From Candidatus Thorarchaeota archaeon (GTDB lineage: Archaea > Asgardarchaeota > Thorarchaeia > Thorarchaeales > Thorarchaeaceae), in NCBI GenBank assembly GCA_048882485.1, contig JBHLRP010000034.1:1-33501 (forward strand): DNA of 33,501 nucleotides, given 5' to 3'. A model generated the notes under the pieces. That model was not told the origin of the DNA. It made no database searches and saw only the letters and a program-made list of their open reading frames with translations. Both the position numbers and the translations under genes were made by a program. The stretch's first letter is position 1. Each line of letters begins with the position of its first letter. Positions 2,936 to 28,900 of the stretch are shown piece by piece.

Positions 2936-5335
2936 CTATTCTTGCTCCTTCCGCTGTGGTTCTCTGCCTGTTTCTGCCCTAGGAATCCACACTCGAAATT
3001 CTACACCTTGGTAATGCATTCCTGGCACTCGGTCAAGCACATCAACTCTGCCCTTGTATTTCTCTAGAATCTCTTTGACTTGATGAAGCCCTACGCCTCC
3101 AAAGCGCCGGTTTGGATTGAACAAGTGGTTCTTGGTCGTATTCCGTATTCCTGGTCCGTTATCAGATATTGACACCTCATACCCATGACCCTTCTGCTTA
3201 ATCTCAACCCATATTCGTGGGTCCGGAGAGGGATTGTGTTGGATTGCGTTCTCTAGGAGATTGTCCAAGAGGCACTCTAGAAAAGCATCAGCAAGTATTG
3301 GTGCATAATTGACGGCATATTCTGATTCGATGAGAACTTGGTCATCATCCTCAATCATGGCATTGACACAATCGAATAACACAGCCCTCAGGTCCCTCTG
3401 GACAAGTGGAACGTCAGTAAGATGTTCTGTAGATTTGGCCTTGAGCACAATCCGCTCACATTTCTTAACAGCATCTTCAATCATCTCAATGAGATAACCA
3501 TTATCCAGCGTACTCATCTTCTCCTTGAGAAGCGCGTTACATGACATTATTATCTGGAGTTGGTTGGTCACATCATGTCCCATTAGATCCAAGTATAGCC
3601 TTGCTCTCTGCGAGGTCATCTGCAGCTCCCTCTCGATCCTTTTCCGCTCAGTTATGTCCAAGACGGTTCCTATCATTCGAACAGCTTTGCCATTATCATC
3701 ATAGATGACCTCGCTCCGCGCGTGTACTATTCTTTCTGAACCATCAGGTCTGACTATGCGATGCTCAATCCTGTATGGGTCTTTTCTTGACAATGTCCTG
3801 TCAACAGCCGCTCTAACGTATTCTCTATCATTCGGATGGACAAACTTCAGAAATGATTCGTAGCTTCCAAAGAAATCCTGTGGTGTCACGCCAAAGATGT
3901 TATAGACCTCATCTGACCAATGCAGTTCATCTGCTTGAATGTCCCAGTCCCAATTGCCAAGATGAGCAATCCTTTGGGCTTCCGTAAGACTTGCCTGACT
4001 TTGGAGGAGCGCCGCCTCTGCCTCCTTCCGCTCAGTGATGTTTCTCGCTACACTGACGATGCTCTCTCCATCCTCGTGCAGATCCAGAGTGACTGAGAAC
4101 CAGGACTGATTCCCTCCGCTATCGAGGACATACTCTAAGTCCTGACGGTTTCCTATGGCCCGGACAATTTCAGAAAGTTCTACGTATTGATGAGCCACAT
4201 CCATGGGAAACACTTCAGTCAATTTCTTTCCCAAGAACTCTTCAGGAGGTGCAGGGAGGAACTCAATGCTTGATGAATAGAATTGTGAAAACCGATTGTC
4301 CTCGTTAGTCACAAAGATCATGTCTTTGATTGACTGAATGAGAGTCCGATGCCGCTCCTCACTCTCTCTCAGTGCCTCCTCTGCTTCATGCCGTTCTGTT
4401 ATGTCAAGGGCATACTCGATTATTTTTGTGACATCTCCATTGTGATCAAATATCGGATACGCGTGAATCTCAAAGTATCTAGCATTCCCTGATGCGCTAT
4501 GATGAATATGGTTCACAACCACAGGCTCTCTTCTCACCTTCACCTCTTCAAGTGGACATGGATGGTCTGCACCATCACACGGCCTTTTCTTCTGGTGGGT
4601 GAGAGCAAAGCAGGTTGAGCCATCTTCGAGAACACCAAACCCTGAAGCGTCATTTGCCATTGTGATTGTGTAGTCATTAGCATCGATGACATAGAAGGGA
4701 TGCGTCAAGGACTCTTTCACTCGCTCCAGAAAGTCACGTTGACTTCGTATAGTTTCTTGAGCCGCCCTATACTGGGTGATGTCGAAGAACATGGTCACAA
4801 GACAACATTTCTCCGACCTGTATGCTGATACAGAGAGCCATCGTCCGAGATGCTCAAGATACTGCTCGAACTCGACCCTCTCCCCGGTGAGAACCACTCT
4901 TCCGAGAGTCCCGATCCAGTCAAATTCTGATGTCTGAATACCCGGAAATACGTCGGTCATACTGTTCCCAACGATGTTTCTGCGCTTCATTCCAGTCAGA
5001 CTCTCAAAAGCAGCATTGACCTCCACATAAATGCAGTCGTAGGGGTGGCCTTCGTCATCGAGCATGATTCTAAGATAAGCAAGTGCAATTGGCATATTTC
5101 GAAATAGACGTTGAAATCTGAGTTCACTATCTAGCCGGGACTGAGTGAGAGTTCTGATCATGTTCTGAAAGGCTCCGCTCTTATGTGAGTTTCTCTGTGG
5201 TTTCGATGTCCCGTCCTCAGCATCGATTCCACTTGGAGTATCATCTGACAGATCAGCAGAAGATCTATCTGTTCCACTGTGGGTCGTGCCAGTGGGGATT
5301 GAACCTGCATTGGGATGGTCCCTGAAACTAGTCAT
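2936..5335 (-). CDS. Cytoplasmic 4xPAS sensor histidine kinase
   Basis: Four PAS/PAC units, H-box MGHDVTNQL, N-box NLLENAIQH, G1 SDNGPGI, G2 GGVGL. ATG 5335 overlaps the upstream roadblock stop by 8 nt, which suggests translational coupling. Confidence 0.92.
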   Translation of the reverse strand: MTSFRDHPNAGSIPTGTTHSGTDRSSADLSDDTPSGIDAEDGTSKPQRNSHKSGAFQNMIRTLTQSRLDSELRFQRLFRNMPIALAYLRIMLDDEGHPYDCIYVEVNAAFESLTGMKRRNIVGNSMTDVFPGIQTSEFDWIGTLGRVVLTGERVEFEQYLEHLGRWLSVSAYRSEKCCLVTMFFDITQYRAAQETIRSQRDFLERVKESLTHPFYVIDANDYTITMANDASGFGVLEDGSTCFALTHQKKRPCDGADHPCPLEEVKVRREPVVVNHIHHSASGNARYFEIHAYPIFDHNGDVTKIIEYALDITERHEAEEALRESEERHRTLIQSIKDMIFVTNEDNRFSQFYSSSIEFLPAPPEEFLGKKLTEVFPMDVAHQYVELSEIVRAIGNRQDLEYVLDSGGNQSWFSVTLDLHEDGESIVSVARNITERKEAEAALLQSQASLTEAQRIAHLGNWDWDIQADELHWSDEVYNIFGVTPQDFFGSYESFLKFVHPNDREYVRAAVDRTLSRKDPYRIEHRIVRPDGSERIVHARSEVIYDDNGKAVRMIGTVLDITERKRIERELQMTSQRARLYLDLMGHDVTNQLQIIMSCNALLKEKMSTLDNGYLIEMIEDAVKKCERIVLKAKSTEHLTDVPLVQRDLRAVLFDCVNAMIEDDDQVLIESEYAVNYAPILADAFLECLLDNLLENAIQHNPSPDPRIWVEIKQKGHGYEVSISDNGPGIRNTTKNHLFNPNRRFGGVGLHQVKEILEKYKGRVDVLDRVPGMHYQGVEFRVWIPRAETGREPQRKEQE

Positions 5336-5720
5336 TAATAATGCTCGACTCCCAGTTTCCAAATGCTCTCTCGACCCTCTCAACCGTCCTGCTCAGTTCG
5401 AAGTCTATAAGCCCAATCTCTGAGTCAGAGGGAGCTATTCCGACGAGAAGCATTCGACCAATATCCTTGAGCATCACAGACTTCTCTTCACCGTCAATCC
5501 GCGTCGATCTCAATGTCCCGACGTTCAGTTCTACCCCCACTCGGTTACCTATCGATAGAATGGCTGCAGCCATGGCTGAGACTGCCTTCTCTCCAGCACT
5601 CTCTGGCAGAGAGGAGCTTATCATCTGACCCTTGTCTGAAACAAGGGCAGACCCAATCAGATCGCAGTTCTGTTCCAATTCTCTCAATATTGCATCAAGT
5701 TTGGCCATTCTCTTACTCAA
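5328..5720 (-). CDS. Roadblock/LC7 (MglB-like) protein
   Basis: SALVSDKGQMISSSLP...VSAMAAAILSIG...IGLIDFEL is the typical roadblock pattern; close paralogue of 7932-8294. Confidence 0.9.
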   Translation of the reverse strand: MSKRMAKLDAILRELEQNCDLIGSALVSDKGQMISSSLPESAGEKAVSAMAAAILSIGNRVGVELNVGTLRSTRIDGEEKSVMLKDIGRMLLVGIAPSDSEIGLIDFELSRTVERVERAFGNWESSIIND

Positions 5721-5753
5721 ACCTCTCTCACCCCGTTCTTCCTCGTTCCTGAG

Positions 5754-6191
5754 CTATGCACTCTCCAAGATCTTACGAATATCTCGTTCCGCCTTATTGA
5801 ATAAGTCCTCAATCTTCTCCATAGTCATCCTCTTCTCCACAATCATCCGTCTTCTTAAGATTGAGAACCTCTCGGAGTCCTTTAGCACCGCTCCCATTCG
5901 AAACCGGCGATTGCTAACAAGAAACTCGCTCATCACAATAATCACCCCTAATGTCTTGACCAAGGCAGTTCTTGGGTTGCCAAAGCCGAGGTTCCCACTG
6001 ACTCTGCAAGCTGTGTCTGACATCAGGGAAACCATTGCTGACAAGGTTTCACTGGACGAGCCATCTGTTACCACTCCAGCAACAATCAACCCTCTTTCGC
6101 TGATCACCACAGAGCTGGAAATACTATCATTTGATTTTATTATCATTCTTCTCAGGATTCCTTCAAGCCTGTCAATCTTGCTCATACTCAT
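5754..6191 (-). CDS. Roadblock/LC7-like protein (divergent)
   Basis: SVVISERGLIVAG...LSAMVSLMSDTACRVSGNLGFG pattern, with a basic insert before the C-terminal helix. Confidence 0.75.
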   Translation of the reverse strand: MSMSKIDRLEGILRRMIIKSNDSISSSVVISERGLIVAGVVTDGSSSETLSAMVSLMSDTACRVSGNLGFGNPRTALVKTLGVIIVMSEFLVSNRRFRMGAVLKDSERFSILRRRMIVEKRMTMEKIEDLFNKAERDIRKILESA

Positions 6192-6207
6192 TGTCTATCC
6201 ACCCGCT

Positions 6208-7203
6208 TTACGTGACAGTTTCTTTGTGCAGTTTGACATCCCATCGGTTTACAATATCCCAAATCTCGCTGCTCAAGTTCTCCATCTCGAAAGTCACCAA
6301 TCCAAGCTGTGTAGAGCAAGGGAAGATGCATGCAATTAGAACGTTCTCAGCAATGCTTTTCAGGAGAATCGAGAAGGACACTGCGCCTCCAGAGTCCTCC
6401 GAGTCAACCAGTACTTGCCTGAACAGGTTTGTACTATCCACCATCCGGATAAAGTCCTCAGAGATTGTTACTAGACCAGCAGACATGCTGCTGATCACCA
6501 TTCCCAGTTCTTCTGGCATGGCATCATAGAATAGTTTGTGAGCTATTATGTAGCCGTCCACAGTAAAGACTGTGAGGCCCCACACAGGGACCTTCATCTC
6601 GAAGTTGCTCAGACGCTCTCTGATCTCCTTCACAGGAGGAACCTCGACCTCATCCAGTGCAGTCACAGGCTCTCTCACAGGAGGAGCTTCGGCCTCTTCA
6701 ACTTCTTTCCGCTTTTTCCTCGGTAGAGCCTCTACTTGTTCTGGTTTCACACCAGCATCTTTTACAGGAGGCATCATGCTCTCATCAGATTCCATGATAC
6801 CCTCTGTCAGAGTAGTTTCTTCGACCTCCTTTGAATCCATGAGCTGTTCTTTCACTAGGCGAGTTTCAGCCTTCTCTGGTACCATGACAGATTCTTCTTC
6901 CATATGTGCTTCAGCTTCCTCTGGGTCTATAGCCAGTTCCTTCATGGGATGTGCTTCGACCTCCTCTGGTTCCAGTGCAGTTTCTTCCAGGGATGAAACT
7001 TCGGCCGCCTTCCGTTTCTTTCTCATTGAAGCGACCGCTTTTTCTTGTTTCACACCAATTACTTTTACAGGAGAATCTTCGGCCTTTTCCTGCTCAATGA
7101 TGGTTTCTTTCATATGAGAAGCCTCGGCTTCTTCTGGTTCCCTTAGCATTTCATTTGCAGGATCTGCTTCAGCCTCTTCCGTTTCCTTCCGTTTCCTCTT
7201 CAT
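6208..7203 (-). CDS. Roadblock-domain protein with N-terminal acidic 15-aa tandem repeats
   Basis: C-terminal VFTVDGYIIAH...ISSMSAGLVTIS...QLGLVTFEM is roadblock-like. The N-terminal ~195 aa are Glu/Pro-rich repeats. 4-nt overlap with the GTPase stop. Confidence 0.8.
   Translation of the reverse strand: MKRKRKETEEAEADPANEMLREPEEAEASHMKETIIEQEKAEDSPVKVIGVKQEKAVASMRKKRKAAEVSSLEETALEPEEVEAHPMKELAIDPEEAEAHMEEESVMVPEKAETRLVKEQLMDSKEVEETTLTEGIMESDESMMPPVKDAGVKPEQVEALPRKKRKEVEEAEAPPVREPVTALDEVEVPPVKEIRERLSNFEMKVPVWGLTVFTVDGYIIAHKLFYDAMPEELGMVISSMSAGLVTISEDFIRMVDSTNLFRQVLVDSEDSGGAVSFSILLKSIAENVLIACIFPCSTQLGLVTFEMENLSSEIWDIVNRWDVKLHKETVT
6610..7140 (-). repeat. Degenerate ~45-nt (15-aa) coding tandem repeat, ~12 units
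   Basis: EPEEAEASHMKETII / EQEKAEDSPVKVIGV / EPEEVEAHPMKELAI / DPEEAEAHMEEESVM / VPEKAETRLVKEQLM / KPEQVEALPRKKRKE and others. Confidence 0.8.
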
Positions 7204-7874
7204 GTCACACCACCTCGTACTGCCTTATTGTCTACAGCATTCACTCCACTCTGACTACTAGCGGTTATTTCGTCGAGCTTTCTCAAAAGGAGAACTAGGG
7301 CATCTTTCGCAGACTCACGGTTCTTAGCTGACATGCCAGTTGCTTCAGAGACGCCGAGCCAAGACGCAACATTCTCTGGAGGTACTGCGTCAGCCCTGTC
7401 TTGCTTGTTAGCAACTATCTCCAATGGAATATTTCCAAAGGCGGCCTGAGTTTCAGCCAGAATAGCACACGCATCGCCAATCATAGCGGGATCTGATGAA
7501 TCAACAATCATCAAAACCCCATCAGTGCTGATCCTCATGGTGTCTCTCACGAACTTGAAGTGCAGTTGGCCTGGCACTCCTCTCAGCTCGATCTCCCTAG
7601 CGACCCACCCAGGGTATTCTGATCTCTCGCGCTCATACTCGGACTTGGCTACTATGAGGCCTATATGGCCCACTTCCTTCCTGACCCAGATGACTCTTCC
7701 CAGATCAAAACCTGTTGTCGTGGTGCTCTTCTCACCATGGAACTCCTCTTTCATCTCGCGTTCAATCGAGATAGCATCAGGATCCAGAGTGTGGATCAGG
7801 GTCGTCTTCCCAGCCTGAAAGGGCCCAGTCACATAGACCTTATAGTCATAGGACTTCAGCCGTCGCACAGACAT
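7200..7874 (-). CDS. Small GTPase, MglA/CvnD-like
   Basis: G1 GPFQAGKTT, G2 TTTGFDLG, G3 GVPGQ (Asp-less, as in MglA/CvnD types), G4 NKQD, G5 SAK. Confidence 0.93.
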   Translation of the reverse strand: MSVRRLKSYDYKVYVTGPFQAGKTTLIHTLDPDAISIEREMKEEFHGEKSTTTTGFDLGRVIWVRKEVGHIGLIVAKSEYERERSEYPGWVAREIELRGVPGQLHFKFVRDTMRISTDGVLMIVDSSDPAMIGDACAILAETQAAFGNIPLEIVANKQDRADAVPPENVASWLGVSEATGMSAKNRESAKDALVLLLRKLDEITASSQSGVNAVDNKAVRGGVT

Positions 7875-7931
7875 ATCAGACAGTCTCCGTTTCTGGTACT
7901 GGATGCTGTAGGGCCTCGTTCGCCTTGAGGC

Positions 7932-8294
7932 CTACAGGATCTCCTTGATCTCTCCTGCTGTCTTGTCCATCTCAAAATCGATAAGACCTATCTTTGCACC
8001 CGAGGGAGCAGTGGCAATCAGAGCCGCATCTACAACTCTCCTGACAATCACAGTCTTTTCACTACCCTCGATGACGATGTTCTTTGGTGCTCCAGAATCG
8101 AGTGCTGCACCTACTCGGCTCCCAATGGACAACAGTGCTGCAGACATAGCTGAAACAGCCTTTTCGTCTACGTCCTTGTGAAGTGCTGAGGCCATGACCT
8201 GCCCCTTGTCACTCACCAGAGCGCATCCATCAACCTCGCTGTTTGTTTCCAGTTGCTTTATGCATTCAGTTAGTTTTTTCATCTTCGAGCTCAT
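7932..8294 (-). CDS. Roadblock/LC7 (MglB-like) protein
   Basis: GCALVSDKGQVMASAL...VSAMSAALLSIG...IGLIDFEM. Confidence 0.92.
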   Translation of the reverse strand: MSSKMKKLTECIKQLETNSEVDGCALVSDKGQVMASALHKDVDEKAVSAMSAALLSIGSRVGAALDSGAPKNIVIEGSEKTVIVRRVVDAALIATAPSGAKIGLIDFEMDKTAGEIKEIL

Positions 8295-8435
8295 TTACTA
8301 TCACCTCTTTTCGTAAAATACGCAAGTGTGCCTTTCCTCCGCAGACACGTAGATCTTCTTTTTCTCACACCATACTAGTCCTTGGGGATTCTCATCTCCG
8401 GCATATACACAGTCTGACTTTGACATGATGAGTGA

Positions 8436-8906
8436 TCACTCCAAGGTTATTTTGAAGGCACACGTATTCTTTTCAGGTTGCCAGAGAGCCTCTGAAACAT
8501 TAGCTATCTTTCCCCCACTTTCTGTAATTGCTGCGGTTAGCATGGCCATCCAAGCACATGGAGGAATCAGGGCTGGATCATCACCTCTGATCAAGTTCGT
8601 TGCTGGAATGAGGGCACAATCCGCAAGCTCAATTCCAATCTCGGAATCACTCATGCCTGTGATTGTGACGTTCTGGACAGCACCGAGCTTGTTCATGGCA
8701 TCCACAAAACTCTCCACGGTTGACTTTGCGCCATCACCGCCAAAACCCAGACCTGCATATTCTACAAGTTCGCGGAGATCAACCTCTGCGAATTGAGAAG
8801 AAACCTGACTGATAAGTAGGTCCCCACTCAGACCCATGCGCATCAGTGAACGGGCTACTGCCGCAATGATGATATTGGATACGTTTACTAGATCCTTGTA
8901 TTCCAT
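8436..8906 (-). CDS. V4R/MetOD1-like (Bet3/TRAPP-fold superfamily) ligand- or metal-binding protein
   Basis: Helical N-terminus, then three spaced Cys (ELADCAL, IPPCAW, NTCAFKI) ending in a terminal beta strand, as in V4R-type domains. Confidence 0.65.
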   Translation of the reverse strand: MEYKDLVNVSNIIIAAVARSLMRMGLSGDLLISQVSSQFAEVDLRELVEYAGLGFGGDGAKSTVESFVDAMNKLGAVQNVTITGMSDSEIGIELADCALIPATNLIRGDDPALIPPCAWMAMLTAAITESGGKIANVSEALWQPEKNTCAFKITLE

Positions 8907-9193
8907 TGTTCTGTTCTCCTGACTGTTGCTTGTGTCAAAACAGTGTCCACAACTAACAGCCTATAGGAGAGGCACAGTTAGTATTAGATAAGGCTACGCT
9001 GGCAATTCACACTAGATGACCAGATTAGCAAGGATGCTGCGCAATCTGTTCGTTTTTCCGAACGCGCCGCTGATAATTTGTCCAATTTCATTGTGTTTTA
9101 TTTGGTTTAATCGACGAACACTTATTATTTCTCGAAACCAATTCCCTCCCAATTATTGCGTCATTATCTTTAACAGGTAAGGGGATAGCCTGA

Positions 9194-11719
9194 TTGCGCA
9201 ATGGTATTGAGATAGAGTCTATGGAAGCCAACACGATGTCACGCAGAAGCAATCTGCGTGATCACATCAGAGCGATTTTGTGTGCAAATCCCAGTGGAAT
9301 CTCAATCTCTGATGTTGCTCGAAAAGCCAATGTAAGCAGAAACACCGCTGCAAAGTATCTAGGCATTCTCTTGGCTTCTGGGGAAGTCGAAGTGAATGCC
9401 ATCGGATCTGCTAAGGTTTATTCAATCTCAGGTCGCATGCCACTATCATCTATCTTGAATTCGACATCTGATAATATTGCAGTGATGGACCAACATCTCA
9501 GGGTTGTGCGCGCGAATGGAAACTTCCTCAGACTCCTCAATATGGACCAAGATGAACTCATTGGGCGGTCTGCCACTGAGGTTGCCTCATCGTTCCGGTC
9601 CTCTAGTGATGCCACTGAAATTCTCGACGAAGTCCTTGTCAAGCTGGATAATGCATTGGAGGGAAAGCACGTAGTCCATGAATTGAGTGCAGAAATCGAT
9701 GGGAAAGAAAAGCATTTCTCTATGAAACTGGTTCCCACAAAATTTGAGAATGGAGAATATGGTGTGACAGCCATCTTTGAGGACACCACAGAGAGAAAAC
9801 TGGCCCAGAACGCAGCAGTTCATCAACGTGACTTTCTCGAAAAAGTGATTGAGTCTCTGATTCATCCGTTCTATGTCATAGATGTTCATAATCACCGTGT
9901 CAAGATTGCAAACAAATCGGCGAATTTTGGTCCTTTGACGGAAGATTCCAAGTGCTACTATCTCACCCACTGGAGGGACAAGCCATGCACTGGATTGGAT
10001 CACCCCTGTCCGCTGAATGAGGTCAAGAGAACGAAGAAGCCCGTCATTGTGGAACACGCTCATTATGACATTGAGAGCGGCAGAGTGAGGTTCTTTGAGG
10101 TGCATGGCATTCCAATCTTTGATAGTAGAGAAAATGTAGTTCAGATGATAGAGTACAATCTGGACATTACTGAACACAAGATTGCAGAACAAAAGGTCAG
10201 GAGCGGAGAGGTGACATTCCAGAGCTTCATTGAACAGTCAACCGATGGAATTGTCCTTGCTGATGAAAATGGACTAGTTGTTGAATGGAATGCTGTTCTG
10301 GAACACATCACAGGTATGACTCGTTCCCAGGCCATAGGGCAGTATATCTGGGAGGTCATTGTCAATTACATGTCGCCCGAAAAAAAGAGCCAAGAAACAG
10401 CGCAGAGGATTAGAAATTGGATTATAACAGCATTAGAGAATGGAGAAGTCCCTCTCGCCAAATCACCCTATACTTTTGATGTGGTGCTCCCCGATGGAGA
10501 TATTCGTGTGATTCAGGTTTCCATGTTCCCTATCAACACTGACACTGGTTATATGTTGGGATCCATACTTCGTGATGTCACTGACCGGCATCGGGCAGTA
10601 ACTGAGATTCGGCGGTCAGAAAAGAAGTATAGAACACTGTATGAGAACATGCCGGATGGTTTTGTCCGGTGTGACCTAGATGGCAAGTTCTTGGAATTTA
10701 ATAAGTCGTATCTAGAGATTGTCGGATACAGTTCTGACGAGCTTCAAGAACTAACATTCTGGGATATCTCGCCTGTAAAATGGCATGAAATGGAACAGAG
10801 GGTGATAAGCGAGCAAATCTTGCCCTACGGATACTGCGATGTCTTTGAGAAGGAGTATGAGAAGAAGGACGGTTCTGTGGCTTCTGTGGAGGTGAGAATA
10901 CATGCCGAACTGGATGATGAGGGACAGATGATTGGCACCTGGGCTCTTGTACGTGACATCACGAAACGTAAGCACGTTGAAACGGAACTGGAGAAGAGTA
11001 AGAACAAATATCGACACCTTTTCAACTCAAGTCGTGACGGCATTGTATTCACAACGATGGAGGGTTTCTTTATGGAAGCCAATCCTGCATTTATCGAAAT
11101 GACGGGTTATGACATGGCAGAGCTGAGATCCCTGACATACCATCAGCTGACGCCTGAACATTGGTTGAAGAATGAAGCCAAGATACACGAAGCTCAGGTC
11201 ATGAAGAGAGGGTATTCTGATGAGTATGAGAAGGAGTACATTCGAAAAGACGGTACAGCTTTCCTCGCTATGATTCGGACATGGCTGCTAAGAGATGATG
11301 AAGACAATCCAGTGGGAGTCGTTGCCATGATTCGCGACATAACTGAGAGAAAGAAGGTCAGAGAAGCTCTGAGAGACAGCGAAGAGCAATATCAATTGAC
11401 TCTCAACTCGATAAGTGACGCATTGTTTGTGGTTGACGATGAGCTTCGAATTGTTCTGACCAATCAAGCATTTGAACGGTGGTGTGGAACCATTGGTGTC
11501 AATGAGAAGGTTATTGGAATGGAGATATATGAGGCATTTCCCTTCTTCCAAATGAAGCTCATCAGTGATTATCAACATATACTCAAGACTGGCGAAGTCC
11601 TGCATACATCGAATTCGATTGTCGTGGCGGGAATTGAACACCTTACGGAGATGTCGAAAATACCAATCTTCAGAACAGGCTCGGTGGCACAGGTTCTTAC
11701 AATCGTCAAGAATACATAG
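9194..11719 (+). CDS. Winged-HTH plus 6xPAS one-component regulator
   Basis: ISISDVARKANVSRNTAAKYL HTH followed by six PAS/PAC units; no kinase domain. True start may be ATG 9221 or 9236. Confidence 0.88.
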   Translation: MRNGIEIESMEANTMSRRSNLRDHIRAILCANPSGISISDVARKANVSRNTAAKYLGILLASGEVEVNAIGSAKVYSISGRMPLSSILNSTSDNIAVMDQHLRVVRANGNFLRLLNMDQDELIGRSATEVASSFRSSSDATEILDEVLVKLDNALEGKHVVHELSAEIDGKEKHFSMKLVPTKFENGEYGVTAIFEDTTERKLAQNAAVHQRDFLEKVIESLIHPFYVIDVHNHRVKIANKSANFGPLTEDSKCYYLTHWRDKPCTGLDHPCPLNEVKRTKKPVIVEHAHYDIESGRVRFFEVHGIPIFDSRENVVQMIEYNLDITEHKIAEQKVRSGEVTFQSFIEQSTDGIVLADENGLVVEWNAVLEHITGMTRSQAIGQYIWEVIVNYMSPEKKSQETAQRIRNWIITALENGEVPLAKSPYTFDVVLPDGDIRVIQVSMFPINTDTGYMLGSILRDVTDRHRAVTEIRRSEKKYRTLYENMPDGFVRCDLDGKFLEFNKSYLEIVGYSSDELQELTFWDISPVKWHEMEQRVISEQILPYGYCDVFEKEYEKKDGSVASVEVRIHAELDDEGQMIGTWALVRDITKRKHVETELEKSKNKYRHLFNSSRDGIVFTTMEGFFMEANPAFIEMTGYDMAELRSLTYHQLTPEHWLKNEAKIHEAQVMKRGYSDEYEKEYIRKDGTAFLAMIRTWLLRDDEDNPVGVVAMIRDITERKKVREALRDSEEQYQLTLNSISDALFVVDDELRIVLTNQAFERWCGTIGVNEKVIGMEIYEAFPFFQMKLISDYQHILKTGEVLHTSNSIVVAGIEHLTEMSKIPIFRTGSVAQVLTIVKNT

Positions 11720-20819: not shown

Positions 20820-21716
20820 TTAATATTCAGTGTCAATCTGTTCGAAGAAAGCATCATCAATCTCATTGATTGCGTACTGCTCCACCACTTCCACTCCAAG
20901 GCCATGGTCAATCATCAGCTCTGCAAGCTTCTCTCCATCAACGAGAACAACACTGGGATCCCTCTGTTCCATTGCAGGCTTTGAAAACTGTGAGGTTGTG
21001 ATGAGTATCCCCTTCCTTGCCCCCTTCCTAGCAAGGGCCCCCTCGAAGGCAGTCACCACAGGATCTCCGACTGTCCTATCCCATTGTTTGGCTTGAATGT
21101 ATATCTTGTAGAGCCCAAGCTTGTCCTGCCAGATGATTCCGTCTATTCCTTGGTCACCGGAACCACCAGTAACGAAAGATGAGTCTTCAAGACCGTATCC
21201 CATCTTGTTCAGAAGTTTCACAACGAGGCGCTCAAAGGCGCGATAAGATATCTCTCTTGTCTTCTTCAGGACGTCCTGCACTAAGATGCTTCTGAGTTCC
21301 TTGCAATTTTCAATCATAGACTCTCGCGGTCCACCAGGAGTCTCCTCCTCTTCTTCTCTCTCCTTGTCCTTCTTTATACGTTCTCTATGTTCCCGATACT
21401 TCTCGAACTTCATGAGATATTTCCTATCCATCTGCTCAACACCAGATTCCAGCTCCTCTTTTCCATCGGGTGTGATGAGGAACTTGCCTCGTCCAGCAGG
21501 TTCGAGGAGTCCCGCACGTTTCAGTTCATGTAGTGCCCAACCAACACGATTGCTGATGACTGACTGTCCATGCTTCAAGGTTCTAGCTCTATCCTCCTTC
21601 GATAGCTTGAACTCATCAGCCACGGCACTGACCACGTCCTTGAAGACCTTGACTTCGCCATCGCTAGCATATCTCAGAAGTGTGATCATACATTCTTGAA
21701 ACGAAGGTATTGTCAT
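20820..21716 (-). CDS. mrr: Mrr type IV restriction endonuclease
   Basis: Mrr N-terminus (MTIPSFQ...NRVGWA...KRAGLLE) and catalytic FERLVVKLL.KMGYG...DQGIDG...YIQAKQW. Confidence 0.93.
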   Translation of the reverse strand: MTIPSFQECMITLLRYASDGEVKVFKDVVSAVADEFKLSKEDRARTLKHGQSVISNRVGWALHELKRAGLLEPAGRGKFLITPDGKEELESGVEQMDRKYLMKFEKYREHRERIKKDKEREEEEETPGGPRESMIENCKELRSILVQDVLKKTREISYRAFERLVVKLLNKMGYGLEDSSFVTGGSGDQGIDGIIWQDKLGLYKIYIQAKQWDRTVGDPVVTAFEGALARKGARKGILITTSQFSKPAMEQRDPSVVLVDGEKLAELMIDHGLGVEVVEQYAINEIDDAFFEQIDTEY

Positions 21717-22888: not shown

Positions 22889-23626
22889 TTAGCACCCAGT
22901 TGCAGCGATGGCGCTAACAACAGCAGAAGTTCCCACAGCTATCTTAAACACAAAGACACAACCTACCCATACTAGGCAATTCATTAAAACGTAGATTCCG
23001 ATTCCTGCAACTGCTGCGATTAGATACCATTTCCACTCCTCCAAAGGCGAATGGTATTCGCCCCGCCCTCGGGTCTTGCTCTTTGACCTTTGGTTCACCA
23101 AGTTGTTGAGATTCTCTTCCACGCGACCTAGGAGAGTTCCAATATTACTATCCTCCATCATCACATTAAATGAACTCTCCGCTATATCCACAAGCTCTTC
23201 AGCTACTTCAGGTTCTAAGTCGTATTCCAAGAGTTCACGTCTGAAGCTGTCCATTACTTGTCTGCGACTATCTTTCAGTTTTTCAGGGCTTTTTAGAACA
23301 TTGTTCAGTTGTGAGAGCTTGGTGTCGCTTAGTCGGGACCTGCATTCTTTCAGCTGTTTTATAGCTCGCTTGATGTGTTTCATACTATCCTTGTGATGAC
23401 GGTCTTCTAACTTATCCAAGTAGTCGATAGAGTCATGAAAACCAAGAATGCTGGCACGACGTTTAGCCTTGAATGACATTTCACTGCGAATAATAGCCTC
23501 TGCTCCACTCCACAGTGAATCCGAGAATTCACCAAGCCCAACAGTATCCTCATTAATATCTCTCCATTCTGCGATAGACTCCTTTCGCAATGGTATCTTC
23601 CAAAAGACCTCCTTCTTATGTTGCAT
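22889..23626 (-). CDS. Hypothetical helical protein with C-terminal hydrophobic, Cys-containing hairpin
   Basis: Charged helical first ~190 aa, basic linker RSKSKTRGRG, then HSPLEEWKWYLIAAVAGIGIYVLMNCLVWVGC...AATGC. Confidence 0.8.
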   Translation of the reverse strand: MQHKKEVFWKIPLRKESIAEWRDINEDTVGLGEFSDSLWSGAEAIIRSEMSFKAKRRASILGFHDSIDYLDKLEDRHHKDSMKHIKRAIKQLKECRSRLSDTKLSQLNNVLKSPEKLKDSRRQVMDSFRRELLEYDLEPEVAEELVDIAESSFNVMMEDSNIGTLLGRVEENLNNLVNQRSKSKTRGRGEYHSPLEEWKWYLIAAVAGIGIYVLMNCLVWVGCVFVFKIAVGTSAVVSAIAATGC

Positions 23627-24292
23627 CTAAAAACCTCCATTGGCTGCATTTCCATTAGAAACGAGGGAACCTAGCCTTGCTTGATGGATGTGTGCTCTTT
23701 TGCAGTCTAAGATAGCAGTATGTCCGCCGATCTAGAATCGGATAATGCCTAGTGCCGCACTTCAACTCTGTATTTCCCTCTGTCTGCGCGGCACATCTTG
23801 CCCTATCAGGTGAAATGCGTACGCCAGCTAATCAACCATTCATTTGATATAACTCTTTCCACAAAGGGGGCTTTTCGATTGAAACCAAACGATCAACCGA
23901 TGATAGGGATGGCAATATGAGTTCATGTGCAGAACTCGTCATAGTTCGCATCTCATTCAACCTATTGCGACAATGTGAGTTATTAGTCCCGAGTCTTAAA
24001 AAACCGAAATCTTATCTCTCTAATGGATTTTGAAAGCTTATATAAGATAGATTTCTGAATCCTAATCACAACGATTTCTTCATCTTATACAGAATTTATA
24101 ATCATTTGACAATCAATCGAAACTTTCATATCGAAGGTCATAGTTCTAAATAGTTGTAGGTTCGTTGATGGAATCTAGGATTCACTGATTCGAGAACGCA
24201 CTACTTCTGATTCCGAACCAAAGCAGTTTAGAGAACATTAGAAAAGGCATCCAAATAACTGGATCCCTTAATCACTCAGAGGAGGAATAGGC

Positions 24293-26095
24293 ATGGCTGA
24301 AACATTCCGAGGCCGCTGGCGAATTACTGTTAAGGGTAGACAAGCATCCTTCGATCAGCGCTTTGTGATAACAGGCAGTGACACTAGTGATGGCACATAT
24401 CCCGGCGTCGTGGGGTCTCCGGAAATCATTGTTGACGGAGCTGCAGGCTGGCAAGTTCAAATCCAGCATAACGATGGAAGTGGATGGAAAGATTCATTGA
24501 TGCGTCAGGCAAACCAAGTCGTTAATGGGGCAAGTCTTCAATTGGACATCGAGTCTGAAGATTGGACTGACATGGATTGGACTGATTTAGTATTAGCAAT
24601 GGAGAAAGTGGGTCCGATTATTACAATTCCAATAAGACCCTATGCAATTGAAACAATATCTCTCCAAATGATGCCCGATGGAATATTTGAATCCGCCCTT
24701 GGGGGTTACTTCATGGGAGTCCGTGTGATGAATATCTGGGGCAAGCCATTCAAGGAAGGGCAATACATTGAAGTCACGCGCCAGAGTCGAGTCCTACTCG
24801 CTGCTCAGAACATACGGATTATCGATACATGGTCTCAGGCGGAGTTACAGTCTTTCAATCAGCAATTGTATGAAACGGGTGTGGTTATTGGGGCTCTGGA
24901 ACCTTTTCAATCTAGAACCATCTACTTCAAGATTGACTGCGGGGGTGCGATGCCACACAAGCCTACAGTGGAGTTTGTATGCCGAGAACCCAATCCTATG
25001 CCTGATCCAGATTCTTCGCGACGCAAAGCTTCATACACTATCTACGTGACTAGGAGTTACATTGATCCTGTGAACCATGAGATGGTGGCTGAAGCACCTG
25101 AGGGAAGAATAAGAATGGCCCTACGAGAGGCTATAGTAGATACAATATCAGCGAGGAAAGGACGAAGGCGTCGTAAGAAGCCACCAGCTCCCACACAAGC
25201 GACTGGAGAACTGCAGTCCATCTTGAAGAAACTCAAGACAGGACGTTTTCAGGATCTATGTCAGCTGCATAAGCTTCTTCATTGCTATTGTAATTGTCTA
25301 GATTTGCTTCGAGTGGATGACGATCCGACTAAGCCTAAAGACCCACGCTTCGAGTATGATCCCTTTTTAGTTTTGCCAACCAAATTCACATATACACTGC
25401 AATGCACGCCGTATGAAGGAGTCCACAGTCCATTGCCATTTCAAGATCCTTGGTGGAAAGTTCTACTCCTGGTGATTGCAATAGTTCTTCTCATCGCTGG
25501 TATGATTAGCGAAGGTGCTGATCTCGCATATCAAGATGAGGATCTTATTATCGGTTCTCTTGAAGAATGGCAAAGGCATGATATTGATGCTGCCCTCACA
25601 AGACTCAATGACCACAGGACTCTACCGATCCCGTTTCTCCAGTATCTTGACGCTCAGAATGGTGAGGTCAGTACTATACCAGTCGAACCAGTCGGGGCTC
25701 CCACGCTGGGAGGTGTAGTTTCACTTCCAGGTGAAGTCATGACAAAACAAGAGATCATTGACATTCTGGCTTTTGGCACCCGGGACGATAAACGAGTTTT
25801 TAAGACCGGTGCAAGGACGGGTTTGACCCACGCCCTCATCGATGGTCTGAGCCCCTGGTCGGATGCAAGGGATGATGGCACGATGTTCACAATCGACCAG
25901 GTGCATTTTGCACGCGATCCAGACAATAATATGCCAATTAGCAGAAAAGGAGACTCAGGCTCAGTATGGATACATAAGAATAGTATGAAGCTGGTGGCTC
26001 TTAATCACAGCGGCAGTAAAGACGAGAGCGGCAATAGCGCATGGGGTTCTCTAATTGAAGACATTGTATCGAAACTAGGTATTCGATTCTCATAG
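24293..26095 (+). CDS. LecB-like N-domain, TM helix and C-terminal half (Asp+Ser) of trypsin-like serine protease
   Basis: RBS GGAGG. SEDWTDMDWTD motif, TM WWKVLLLVIAIVLLIAG, DIDAAL (D432), VFKTGARTGLT, KGDSGS (S555), LVALNHSG. No catalytic-His motif found. Confidence 0.85.
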   Translation: MAETFRGRWRITVKGRQASFDQRFVITGSDTSDGTYPGVVGSPEIIVDGAAGWQVQIQHNDGSGWKDSLMRQANQVVNGASLQLDIESEDWTDMDWTDLVLAMEKVGPIITIPIRPYAIETISLQMMPDGIFESALGGYFMGVRVMNIWGKPFKEGQYIEVTRQSRVLLAAQNIRIIDTWSQAELQSFNQQLYETGVVIGALEPFQSRTIYFKIDCGGAMPHKPTVEFVCREPNPMPDPDSSRRKASYTIYVTRSYIDPVNHEMVAEAPEGRIRMALREAIVDTISARKGRRRRKKPPAPTQATGELQSILKKLKTGRFQDLCQLHKLLHCYCNCLDLLRVDDDPTKPKDPRFEYDPFLVLPTKFTYTLQCTPYEGVHSPLPFQDPWWKVLLLVIAIVLLIAGMISEGADLAYQDEDLIIGSLEEWQRHDIDAALTRLNDHRTLPIPFLQYLDAQNGEVSTIPVEPVGAPTLGGVVSLPGEVMTKQEIIDILAFGTRDDKRVFKTGARTGLTHALIDGLSPWSDARDDGTMFTIDQVHFARDPDNNMPISRKGDSGSVWIHKNSMKLVALNHSGSKDESGNSAWGSLIEDIVSKLGIRFS

Positions 26096-26112
26096 GAGGT
26101 TGCAGTCTAAAT

Positions 26113-27879
26113 ATGAAAACGAATGGTAAGGAGCTTGAAAAAAGGCAGAAACTGCTTGAGAAATTGCAGCATGCTGTAGAGAAGGCTAGGCGTTTATGGA
26201 GAAATGACTCCAATATTATCAGCATCGGCATTGGATCGAAACATCAGGATGGCAAAGTTACGGAGGAACTAGCTATCGTATTTCATGTCCATAAGAAGCT
26301 TAGATCAGAAACTGCAATACACACAATTGGCAGTAGGACAATCCCATCGGAGTTTGAGGGTTTTCCCACAGATGTGAAAGTCTTCGACGCTGTGTCATCT
26401 GGAGGCGCCACGGGTAATAGAGATGAAACAAGATATGACCCGCTCGTCGGTGGTGTGGCAACTAGCAATGCAGAAAATAACATCGTCTGGTTCAACGGAT
26501 ATGGCACTCTCGGCACACTATGCTTTCTAAATGATTCTCCTATGGCTCTATCTAACTGGCACGTGTGGGCAGATGGAGGTGACAAGGGTGATGACATCAT
26601 CCAACCAGGCCATCCCCGAGGTAGTGAGCACCTTGAAGGCTTGGCGAAGGTCGCTTTTTGCGGCCCACTTCTTGGCTCTCTTTTTGAGTGGGAAGCCCCA
26701 TCACCCTTAACTTGGGGTCTGTATGGGGGCGCGGCTGCTGCTGCTATTGCAGCAGCCGCGAGTGATGAGATAGATCCAATGCGTCGTGGGCAGAACGCCA
26801 CTCCAACAGATCCAGGAGAACTCACATTAGAGGAACAAGTAGACATAGTGATTGACTATCTGGATCAGCCCATACCAGGAACACCCTACAAGTTGAAAAC
26901 AGTCTGGGAGTATCAAAGGACAACAGACAAGAAGATTCACACCCACGAGGTCAAGGAGGAATTAGTGAACCCGCATTACTTGACTCTCAAGCGGCTGTGG
27001 AGTGACCAAGGTAAGTACAGACCGGGGAGCAAAATCCGCTTGTACGCCTTGGTTGCTAGTCCCCATTCACGGCCATGCCAATCCTACTACGTTGTAGCAC
27101 ATTCCATCCCTGATAGCAATCCCTCAAAGCTTGTGTCAACCGTACTCAGTCCTGTATCATGCGACTCTTTGCCACTTATTGACGATGGAGAAGACAAGAT
27201 GAAATGTGTTGATTTCTCTCCTGAAAAGCCGAGCACCCTGTTTCCTCATGTTATTCAGCGAGAAGATGTGCGTTTTGAGGTTCCTGCGCAGCTAAAGGAA
27301 GGTAACCGTATTGTTGATTTCTCGGGAGATGGGGCTGGGGAGCTCTTCTTGCACAATGAGCTTATAGCCTATATTCCTCTCTCCACAACAGTAGAAGCAA
27401 CTGTATTCTTTAACCACTCTGGACTCACAATGGACGCATATTACCAAGGACATCTGGTAGATTCAGCTCAGGTGTCTGGCAAAACTGGGCGAACTATGAA
27501 ACTTCTCACAAAATCTCGAGCGATAGACCGCATAGTCTTGAAGGGAGGTCAGTGGGAATCCTCTTTGCTTAGGCTCTGCTATACACCCATCACAATTAAG
27601 AAAGGTCCATCAGGTGAGCTAAACCTACTAGTCCAAGGAAAGAAGAAAGGTATGTACATCTGCTGTTACACTGGCGAGTTAGTTGTTTCCCCCAGCGAAC
27701 AACCAAGCACATGGAAGAACTATCTAATGGTTCAAAACATAAACGACGTCCCCGGAGGCGTTCCACCTGAAGAAGCAGCGACAACAATCGGGGGATTGAT
27801 TGTATCCCAGAATATGGAAGCCCAACTCGCAGGATGCGGAGCAGTAATGGCTGCTGATCACCTGTTTGATATAATTTGA
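26113..27879 (+). CDS. Nal1-type pro-domain, N-terminal part (His) of trypsin-like protease and beta-rich C-terminal domains
   Basis: RBS GGAGG. IGIGSK...AIVFHVHKK...IPSEFEGFPTDV pro-domain, PLVGG, GTLG, LSNWHV (H150), GDDIIQPG. No GDSG motif. Confidence 0.85.
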   Translation: MKTNGKELEKRQKLLEKLQHAVEKARRLWRNDSNIISIGIGSKHQDGKVTEELAIVFHVHKKLRSETAIHTIGSRTIPSEFEGFPTDVKVFDAVSSGGATGNRDETRYDPLVGGVATSNAENNIVWFNGYGTLGTLCFLNDSPMALSNWHVWADGGDKGDDIIQPGHPRGSEHLEGLAKVAFCGPLLGSLFEWEAPSPLTWGLYGGAAAAAIAAAASDEIDPMRRGQNATPTDPGELTLEEQVDIVIDYLDQPIPGTPYKLKTVWEYQRTTDKKIHTHEVKEELVNPHYLTLKRLWSDQGKYRPGSKIRLYALVASPHSRPCQSYYVVAHSIPDSNPSKLVSTVLSPVSCDSLPLIDDGEDKMKCVDFSPEKPSTLFPHVIQREDVRFEVPAQLKEGNRIVDFSGDGAGELFLHNELIAYIPLSTTVEATVFFNHSGLTMDAYYQGHLVDSAQVSGKTGRTMKLLTKSRAIDRIVLKGGQWESSLLRLCYTPITIKKGPSGELNLLVQGKKKGMYICCYTGELVVSPSEQPSTWKNYLMVQNINDVPGGVPPEEAATTIGGLIVSQNMEAQLAGCGAVMAADHLFDII

Positions 27880-28172
27880 CTCCATTAATCGCCTATGCAG
27901 TACTCTTGGAAGGATGGAGTCCATACCTGTTGATTTTGGTCGGTTATGCCTATGTGGCCGCATTCTTCCCTGTCCTGATTGAAAACGGTCTGGGGCGGAT
28001 GATCTCTCACGTTGAAGCAACCGCTGAGGACATTGAAATGATTAGAGAGGCTGAGCGGACTGCAACTCATCATGTGCGCACTTGTTCTGAATGCGGTAGA
28101 GAGATACTGATTCCGAAGGAAGAGAGAGGAGTCACTACATGTCCCAATTGCGGAAAGAGGCAAGTATTGTAG
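27876..28172 (+). CDS. Small membrane-anchored zinc-ribbon protein
   Basis: Hydrophobic N-terminus and CSECG...CPNCG. TTG start overlaps the upstream stop (TTGA). Could be a 3' gene remnant. Confidence 0.55.
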   Translation: MTPLIAYAVLLEGWSPYLLILVGYAYVAAFFPVLIENGLGRMISHVEATAEDIEMIREAERTATHHVRTCSECGREILIPKEERGVTTCPNCGKRQVL

Positions 28173-28228
28173 TCCACAATACTTGTGAGAGTCTTATATG
28201 GTTGCACGAGTACTATGAACGAGCACTC

Positions 28229-28900
28229 ATGGTTATCGTAGCCAAACCGAGAAAGGTAATTGTACGATTACATGATGCGTTCGAAGACATTCGTTTCAGC
28301 TTGGACAAAGATGTCAGGTGGTTCGACAATGCGGTGCCGCATGTCGAGAATTGCTTTGAGTTCCTCCGAAAACGTGCCATGTCAACCCGTGATCTTGTGA
28401 AGCTCTTTGGCTTTCTATGGCCGAACATCGACCCCGAAATGAAGGAGAAGGAGTTCCTACAGCGATTGACGATAATCATAAGGACTAACTATGTGTTCAG
28501 TCTCTCATCCGCTGAGTACTTCCTAAAGAACGTCATCAAGGCGTCAAAGAGTGGTCCACTCGTGGACTGGCTTCAGGAGAAGACTGAAGAGGCAAAGATG
28601 GAGGACAAGATATTCTGGATGTATCTCACCAACATCATGAAGGAGTCCAAGCGAAAGAAGCTGATAACCAAGACGCAACACAAGAACTGGGATGGATTGG
28701 CCCAACTACGCAATGTCATCATACACAACAATGGCGTCTTTGAGAGGAGTAGAGTAATTCGTATCGGAGGAGTCAAGATTACTGCAGAGGCAGGAGAGCA
28801 GATAGACACCAAGCTGATAAACTATCCCAAGTTCATGAGGACCCTCATCAGGTTGACTCGGGCATGGATTGAGAAGTATCTAGTCGACCATGAGTTTTGA
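28229..28900 (+). CDS. HEPN-like protein
   Basis: Helical protein with SAEYFLK and WDGLAQLRNVIIHNNG (Rx4H). ATG 28229 preferred to avoid overlap with the upstream gene. Confidence 0.7.
   Translation: MVIVAKPRKVIVRLHDAFEDIRFSLDKDVRWFDNAVPHVENCFEFLRKRAMSTRDLVKLFGFLWPNIDPEMKEKEFLQRLTIIIRTNYVFSLSSAEYFLKNVIKASKSGPLVDWLQEKTEEAKMEDKIFWMYLTNIMKESKRKKLITKTQHKNWDGLAQLRNVIIHNNGVFERSRVIRIGGVKITAEAGEQIDTKLINYPKFMRTLIRLTRAWIEKYLVDHEF

Follow-up and report, generated by a model that had tools for sequence, protein, structure and literature searches.

In both rice NAL1 (PDB 7Y77, 8PME and 8PMG) and the prokaryotic Nal1-like S1 proteases (PF25608, PF25819), a pro- or N-terminal domain precedes the two-barrel trypsin fold, which contains a His-Asp-Ser triad. 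In NAL1 the whole triad (H234, D291, S385) is located in one chain, and contacts within the hexamer set the loop of the catalytic His; the enzyme is under hexamer assembly control (PMC12012508). The stretch of 33,501 nucleotides (nt) analysed here, contig JBHLRP010000034.1 of a Candidatus Thorarchaeota archaeon (hereafter the window), contains two co-directional genes, A (24293–26095, plus strand, 600 amino acids) and B (26113–27879, plus strand, 588 amino acids), which display the same motifs (GTLG, NxHV, DAA, KxGxxTG and GDSGS) and match these proteases by profile and by structure. In contrast to NAL1, the triad of A–B is distributed over two genes in permuted order, and each half of the protease is fused to one half of a second protein, named H here. 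The order of a single-chain triad is not found, since the upstream gene A encodes Asp and Ser and His comes from gene B. The probability of such a doubly split architecture with a working triad is estimated at about 0.88.

In naturally split inteins, e.g. DnaE, the insert is divided across two genes. A–B resembles them in that two genes each encode one part of an inserted domain, joined to one half of the host protein, and both parts need to come together. It differs in that the insert is a permuted trypsin fold and not Hint, the genes are adjacent, no evidence for splicing was obtained and the model rebuilds the host fold unspliced. In flavivirus NS2B-NS3 and hepatitis C virus NS4A-NS3 the triad lies wholly in NS3, and the chains, as well as those of two-chain chymotrypsin, are cut from one precursor. 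Common to these proteases and A–B is a chymotrypsin fold completed by strands of a second chain, or a triad spread over chains; in A–B, however, it is separate genes that provide His and Asp/Ser. No natural trypsin-fold protease with a triad divided between genes was found in the literature searched, which left most subscription journals outside. The enzyme chemistry is of a known kind; no account of the crossed double split or of the H family was found in the searchable literature.

The first-pass annotation of this locus had assigned the later protease elements to A and the earlier ones to B, and had proposed to compare each half with trypsin and Nal1 profiles. Single-sequence searches of both proteins gave no match in PDB, NCBIfam and PADLOC and one sub-threshold Pfam match (for B); informative evidence came only from family profiles and models. 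The profile of the B family (B 32–154) matched residues 86–213 of rice NAL1 (E 1.7e-4), and the profile of the A family matched residues 295–381 weakly (E 0.037). The model of A 415–600 aligns to residues ~50–203 of alpha-lytic-type proteases (Z 12.2, root mean square deviation (rmsd) 2.5, 142 residues aligned) and to NAL1 252–444 (Z 9.5). Since the superposition starts only at residue ~50, A is devoid of the first ~50 residues of the protease fold. In the intact relative L033, residues 4–140 are covered by the B-half profile and residues 161–308 by the A-half profile, with zero overlap. Models and profiles thus agree with the assignment, and the two-barrel chymotrypsin fold is completed by A and B jointly only.

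The C-half of the protease occupies A 417–600 (25541–26092) with Asp432 (nt 25586) and Ser555 (nt 25955). Its N-part occupies B 100–168 (26410–26616), contains His150 (nt 26560) and ends just past the QPG motif. These catalytic positions are those given previously. Each protein has more than 100 full-length homologues, with a median pairwise identity of 37–45%, among which His150 (110/110), Asp432 (117/117) and Ser555 (117/117) are invariant; the catalytic residues are also kept in all 44 paired loci. Ahead of the protease part of B, a NAL1_N-type pro-domain was found by profile at B 1–92 (26113–26388); homologues show faint PF25608 matches, and this copy of B is below Pfam detection. In the region of the S1 pocket, 104 of 117 A sequences have Ser at position 190, and position 213 is His in 48 and Asn in 64 of the 117. 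Such residues presumably resemble the acid-preferring S1 pockets of V8 and SGPE, with a numbering deduced from motif alignment, and from the sequences we infer an acid-preferring pocket in many members.

Two tandem pro-domains were observed in the B proteins of L036, L037, L040 and L084. The genome of the host also encodes an intact Nal1-type protease (L083, G000 contig C24, minus strand; a frame of 347 residues), which is preceded by a small stand-alone copy of its pro-domain, the coordinates 3263–4303 and 3002–3259 covering both genes. The tandem pro-domains may be the fused remnant of such a pair of stand-alone pro-domain and protease.

The identity of the non-protease parts became clear from loci L049–L077, which encode a single-chain H of 510–580 amino acids corresponding to A 110–416 followed directly by B 192–590, the protease part being absent. 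The non-protease parts of A and B are therefore the two halves of H, and the pair is doubly complementary. The first-pass annotation had noticed several hundred residues of extra domains, which are indeed present, and had failed to recognise them as halves of one protein. The locus reads H-N, protease-C, stop, start, protease-N, H-C. The N-half of H (A 108–410, 24614–25522) comprises an immunoglobulin (Ig)-like domain, long strands, a PFxDPWWK motif and the hydrophobic helix 1 (A 386–409, 25448–25519), which is connected to the protease half by a conserved acidic linker (A 410–416, 25520–25540; column identity 0.77 over 411–419). In B, the hairpin loop with the invariant Cys183 and the Ala/Gly-rich helix 2 (B 169–218, 26617–26766) are followed by long strands and the start of an Ig/MG-like domain (B 219–350, 26767–27162), and by the C-terminal part of H with the invariant Cys575 (B 515–588, 27655–27876). 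In H the junction is a helical hairpin: helix 1, which is hydrophobic, belongs to A, and the Gly-rich loop with its Cys and the Ala-rich helix 2 belong to B. As judged from the sequence, the permuted protease gene is located inside the loop of this hairpin. The hydropathy (KD19) is 2.6 for helix 1 and 1.2 for helix 2 of this locus (family median 1.5), against 2.8 and 1.9 in intact H. Of the hydrophobic helix claimed previously at the split in each half, the one in A is thus clear and the one in B marginal. Such a hairpin is needed for an alpha-helical pore-former, but it is unspecific and fits a two-helix anchor too.

Two further domains are carried by the pair. A 1–107 (24293–24613) shows a LecB/PA-IIL lectin fold (1gzt, Z 10.7, rmsd 3.0, 102 residues aligned; TM 0.81 to an atlas cluster with 25% PA-IIL) with an acidic Ca/sugar loop in which E89, D90 and D98 are invariant and D95 is kept in 112 of 117 homologues. 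The LecB sugar site uses the free C-terminus of the protein. As in LecB, the lectin fold of A is signal-less and has the acidic loop; unlike in LecB it is N-terminal, the free C-terminus is missing, and the binding of glycans by A is a prediction. B 355–500 (27175–27612) is an inserted jelly-roll domain resembling carbohydrate-binding modules (CBM; 8wc1, Z 12.7, rmsd 3.4, 131 residues aligned), which is missing from intact H and from some pairs (L029–L031). Foldseek matches of whole B to birnavirus capsid and leukocidin had a high rmsd and were rejected as generic beta matches. Matches to HAP2/fusexin and complement C3 (Z 7–8.5) were set aside as matches of the Ig type with scores in the common range.

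A profile search with H recovered 444 representatives (E up to 0.001; fragments and split halves are counted in). Sequence searches of H gave no match in Pfam, PADLOC and PDB and one sub-threshold match in NCBIfam (choice-of-anchor X), and atlas look-ups returned unnamed clusters only. By sequence, H did not match any known pore-former; the fold searches of A and B were dominated by the other domains. Distant relatives of H carry signal peptides together with PEP-CTERM-like, type IX secretion system (T9SS) or beta-barrel tails, and this distant subfamily therefore acts outside the cell. Its members (P0321, P0322, P0332 in L093, P0340, P0359 in L094) have shorter hairpins and C-terminal PEP-CTERM-like, T9SS/SprB, dockerin or outer-membrane beta-barrel parts. 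Close intact H genes follow a gene encoding an Ig-like protein, U, in 28 of 29 loci (L049–L077), or are fused to it. This U–H module is undescribed; U has ~275 amino acids, is Ig/CARDB-like and contains an invariant GHxC motif (e.g. L050, 7144–7962 for U and 7983–9581 for H), and fused U–H chains reach 786–963 amino acids (P0266, P0279, P0286). Gene U is absent near A–B loci.

Co-folding was done with A 108–600 and B 88–588. The score was 0.90, against 0.00 for the best control, and the mark used is reached by 58 of 80 solved pairs and by 2 of 110 mismatched pairs. At least 76% of the contacts are shared between runs, and the partner pLDDT is at least 75. The best-defined contacts connect A 432–438 to B 144–152, including Asp432–His150 (expected error of 0.6 Å); the body of H is joined by the contacts A126–B541, A363–B247 and A366–B243, and the interface contains both helices of the hairpin as well as Ser555 and His150. 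The first-pass annotation had held that the triad is shared across the two proteins and that the lack of a composite barrel upon co-folding would speak against it; a composite barrel is predicted, with Asp432 in contact with His150. The model supports the rebuilding of both folds, protease and H, and for the H part no solved relative was found by sequence. The conditional AND-gate put forward in the same annotation is weakened. Since the two genes are always adjacent and the predicted interface is large (~550 contacts) with interlocked beta-strands, a constitutive heterodimer is favoured over a regulated AND-gate.

A search for the same two-gene order elsewhere had also been suggested. Species genomes were scanned, and A, whole or frameshifted, was present at 49 loci; B is directly next in 48 of them and the remaining contig stops within A. 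The order is thus kept in 48/48 testable genomes from ~12 phyla, with a gap of typically 10–20 nt, and the pair was also recovered by reverse look-ups from four B proteins and one A protein. Carriers belong to Acidobacteriota, Chloroflexota, Actinomycetota, Pseudomonadota, Bacteroidota, Cyanobacteriota, Myxococcota and Gemmatimonadota, and further include a Gemmataceae genome, a halophile and a Methanosarcinales archaeon. Cultured hosts of the pair exist, among them Archangium lansingense, Cellulomonas cellasea and Nostoc. Trees of A and B have 19 strong splits in common and 3 conflicts; because kin are not independent, this agreement indicates co-inheritance only. In the window both reading frames are intact and preceded by their own GGAGG ribosome-binding motif (24281–24285 for A; 26095–26099 for B, overlapping the stop codon of A, 13 nt before the ATG of B; both on the plus strand), as noted in the first-pass annotation. 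With the pair conserved and syntenic and its catalytic residues invariant, a triad divided between two gene products is supported, and not a frameshift or decay, as had been argued. Promoter and terminator scans gave results below chance.

No fused A+B chain was found among proteins of more than 1050 amino acids, which is weak evidence. Frames of 1200 amino acids in L005 and L013 were considered as A+B fusions and turned out to be GC-rich upstream extensions of B in a frame that differs from that of A. Pattern scans with B gave no match in viral contigs; the equally blank scan of metagenome contigs is a failure of the pattern, since JGI contigs do contain the pair. Among RNA data sets, none was listed as containing it. 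Of 301 genomes searched in the phylum of the host, one has the pair. Because it is this rare and its closest relatives are bacterial, the pair is an accessory acquisition in the host. The host genome encodes a true actin (E 4e-132) and two Snf7 genes, a set that suggests an Asgard archaeon.

Eight of the 49 pairs are frameshifted (L017, L024, L038, L044, L045, L047, L048, L052), several of them from assemblies that look long-read by name, where errors and real decay are indistinguishable. Both an intact copy (L035) and a broken one (L052) occur in one Saprospirales genome. L090, in a Streptomyces genome, has integrases, a transposase and a NACHT gene around the pair, and the pair of L091 adjoins amoA/amoC in a contig of archaeal ammonia-oxidiser type.

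The history of the split was analysed in a tree of H with intact H as outgroup and midpoint rooting; only 9 intact rows aligned well enough for a second tree. A strongly supported branch sets the split forms apart, and a single unsplit protein, P0344, falls on their side. This protein contains lectin and H in one chain and no protease, and is joined where helix 1 ends and the loop of B begins (P0344/P0396; L082, 56–2074 and L095, 263–2281, the latter a 98% identical copy from a second, separate run). P0344 is sister to the split pair L084, and a grouping of all split forms without it is rejected (approximately unbiased (AU) test, p 0.002). A first reading of P0344 as the ancestor before the insertion was ruled out by the trees. 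The phylogeny is read as a single origin of the split with one later in-frame loss of both protease halves, P0344 being a putative natural revertant. At the origin, a protease gene would have entered the H gene in permuted order, either through a crossover that involved a circular copy or because a tandem copy was trimmed, giving H-N/protease-C, stop, ribosome-binding site, start, protease-N/H-C as product.

From these results, A and B are proposed to form an obligate heterodimer which would be assembled constitutively and rebuild two proteins at once. One would be a Nal1-type trypsin-fold serine protease with His150 and the pro-domain from B and Asp432 and Ser555 from A; the other would be H, with its Ig-like body and its hydrophobic hairpin contributed by both chains. 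The tip of the hairpin, which in intact H is a short loop containing Cys, would carry the protease. The dimer may be a soluble and signal-less effector that leaves the cell and is targeted to glycans; its LecB-like and CBM-like domains would bind surface glycans, and its hairpin would engage the membrane. The protease could then cut targets at the membrane and/or the conserved acidic junction linkers of a neighbouring dimer, which would uncap the hairpin. Its activity would be controlled by the pro-domain and the oligomeric state, as in NAL1, rather than by the first meeting of A and B.

An effector role is supported by the lectin fold with its acidic loop, the CBM-like fold, the exported relatives of H, the patchy spread over phyla and the rarity in the host phylum. 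Several observations weigh against the proposal. Neither a signal peptide nor a Tat motif was found in A, B and the closest intact H, so that the release of an effector is unexplained; this absence is a difficulty for the effector and for a transmembrane receptor alike. H has no match to known toxins by sequence, no conserved neighbour, immunity gene or secretion gene is found beside the pairs, and helix 1 is hydrophobic enough for a genuine transmembrane anchor. As for the triad, its geometry in the co-fold is judged from the Asp432–His150 contact, and the protease part of the model may pass through its likeness to solved trypsin folds, as the halves of a split gene often do. The specific role of a glycan-targeted, membrane-acting effector is tentative and rated somewhat below even odds, while the architecture with a broad effector role left open is considered probable.

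In the unlikely case that the pair is a membrane-hairpin switch, a membrane event (a ligand-driven shift of a helix, insertion into a target or a breach of the cell's own membrane) would align or unite His with Asp/Ser. If true, the protease halves would be carried on the two helices of a lectin-bearing hairpin and proteolysis would be turned on by that event. In one form of it, a natural counterpart of engineered split-protease receptors, the hairpin would span the cell's own membrane and separate the lectin/Ig/CBM body from the protease halves, and a bound ligand would shift the helices so as to align the triad. Each protease half indeed hangs directly off one hairpin helix, the loop side is acidic with nearly no Lys or Arg, and helix 1 and both helices of intact H have a suitable hydropathy. 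This receptor is nonetheless judged improbable: helix 2 is weaker in the split forms, the N-terminal part of A (385 residues) or of B (195 residues) would need to pass through the membrane with no signal peptide to direct it, and no conserved substrate or regulator gene is located close by. Still more doubtful is a separation of the halves by compartment, in which A, as an N-in/C-out signal-anchor protein, would expose the Asp/Ser half outside while B keeps the His half inside, the triad being formed only upon a breach of the membrane or when the helix of B is pulled across. Such a protease would be triggered by membrane damage. A fits the standard signal-anchor pattern, with Lys before helix 1 and acidic residues after it; B has no export signal and a marginal helix, and the split is kept across phyla without a fused form (within the limits given above). 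But a half barrel exported alone would probably be unstable, the pairs are not enriched near defence genes, and the co-fold packs helix 1 on the helices of B in one particle.

The remaining explanations fare worse. Programmed excision of the DNA between the two junctions, which would restore the H gene and release the complete protease gene as a circle, would suit a gene order that is exactly the one left by an integrated protease-gene circle, and a precisely re-fused H exists in nature (P0344/P0396). Excisable elements of the skin/nifD type, however, have a recombinase gene and terminal direct repeats. No repeat pair was found at the two junctions in four loci, and the segment neither contains a recombinase gene nor has a conserved one as neighbour; four DNA runs showed no indel or joint in A–B, the contigs of which drop rare variants and which are possibly the source of this sequence; the junction linkers are conserved as protein; and the re-fusion is an old event, since the re-fused H is only 49% identical to its nearest split relative. 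Excision is thus highly improbable, and so is an intein-like processing by which the split protease would cut both junctions and ligate H-N to H-C via an acyl-enzyme into a single-chain H. The layout (host-N/insert and insert/host-C) is that of a split intein and both linkers, the one in B at residues 172–175, have conserved acidic residues, but no Hint fold, intein motif or Pfam intein match was found in the trypsin-fold insert, and cis cleavage looks unlikely from the fold because the chain is interrupted at some distance from the active site, in the loop that follows the His helix. Least credible is that A is active alone through an alternative triad, or that the protease fold is a structural clamp. 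The stretch A 571–574 (nt 26003–26014) includes His572 at chymotrypsin position 214, an uncommon residue there, which is present in 116 of 117 close A homologues; intact relatives carry a hydrophobic GLLFAG-type motif where A has His214 and His/Asn213. Yet His572 is replaced by Phe in 4 of 44 paired loci, in contrast to the invariant His150 of B, the first part of the fold is missing from A, and the model places Asp432 in contact with His150; against a dead clamp, GDSGS is invariant.

The first-pass annotation had also placed the pair among defence genes. This holds for the window, in which a clear Mrr restriction endonuclease (20820–21716) and a weak HEPN/HepT-like gene (28139–28900; E 0.003, below the cut-off) were found, and not in general. 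Both are not conserved next to other pairs, where flanking genes are mostly housekeeping and ~5/134 match PADLOC, mostly methyltransferases and OmpA-type domains. The pair is not enriched among defence genes, although it may still act in defence. Like the conflict systems with trypsin-like peptidases (vWA-MoxR/Trypco, NucA-trypsin; PMC7159879), the A–B loci are patchy and mobile with some membrane segments; unlike there, none of the partner genes of those systems adjoins the pair, and A, B and H are not covered by any PADLOC model. The word 'split' is absent from the main text of that paper (PMC7159879).

Structures of umbrella particles (8w20, 9oee) were among the results of the fold search with A. 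Streptomyces umbrella particles are toxin particles that bear lectins and combine them with a trypsin-fold domain. They differ from A–B, which has no umbrella components or repeats nearby and a protease that keeps a complete triad.

Other features of the window were recorded. A gene of 245 amino acids (22889–23626, minus strand), divergent from A, ends in a C-terminal pair of hydrophobic segments; it does not match H significantly (probability 0.6%), and homologues were seen neither elsewhere in the genome nor beside other pairs. Directly after B, ~300 nt (27876–28178) have a second genome copy on contig C57 (E 6e-60), with doubled read depth, and encode a frame of 98 amino acids ending in two CxxC motifs. 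The region 2936–11719 contains a PAS histidine kinase, several roadblock/LC7 genes, an Arf/MglA-like small GTPase and a divergent helix-turn-helix (HTH)-PAS regulator.

Trypsin-fold proteases carry their triad in one gene product, whereas the triad of A–B is on two genes, a state kept in ~12 phyla together with the reciprocal split of H. The A–B dimer would thus be a four-way crossover of two folds. It would represent a one-step route to an obligate heterodimer, for which the unsplit state (intact H and intact Nal1-like proteases) and the reverted state (re-fused H) are both on record. The break marks a naturally tolerated split point in the trypsin fold, directly useful for split-protease sensors, and the analysis newly exposes H as a family with a hydrophobic hairpin and, in some members, export signals.

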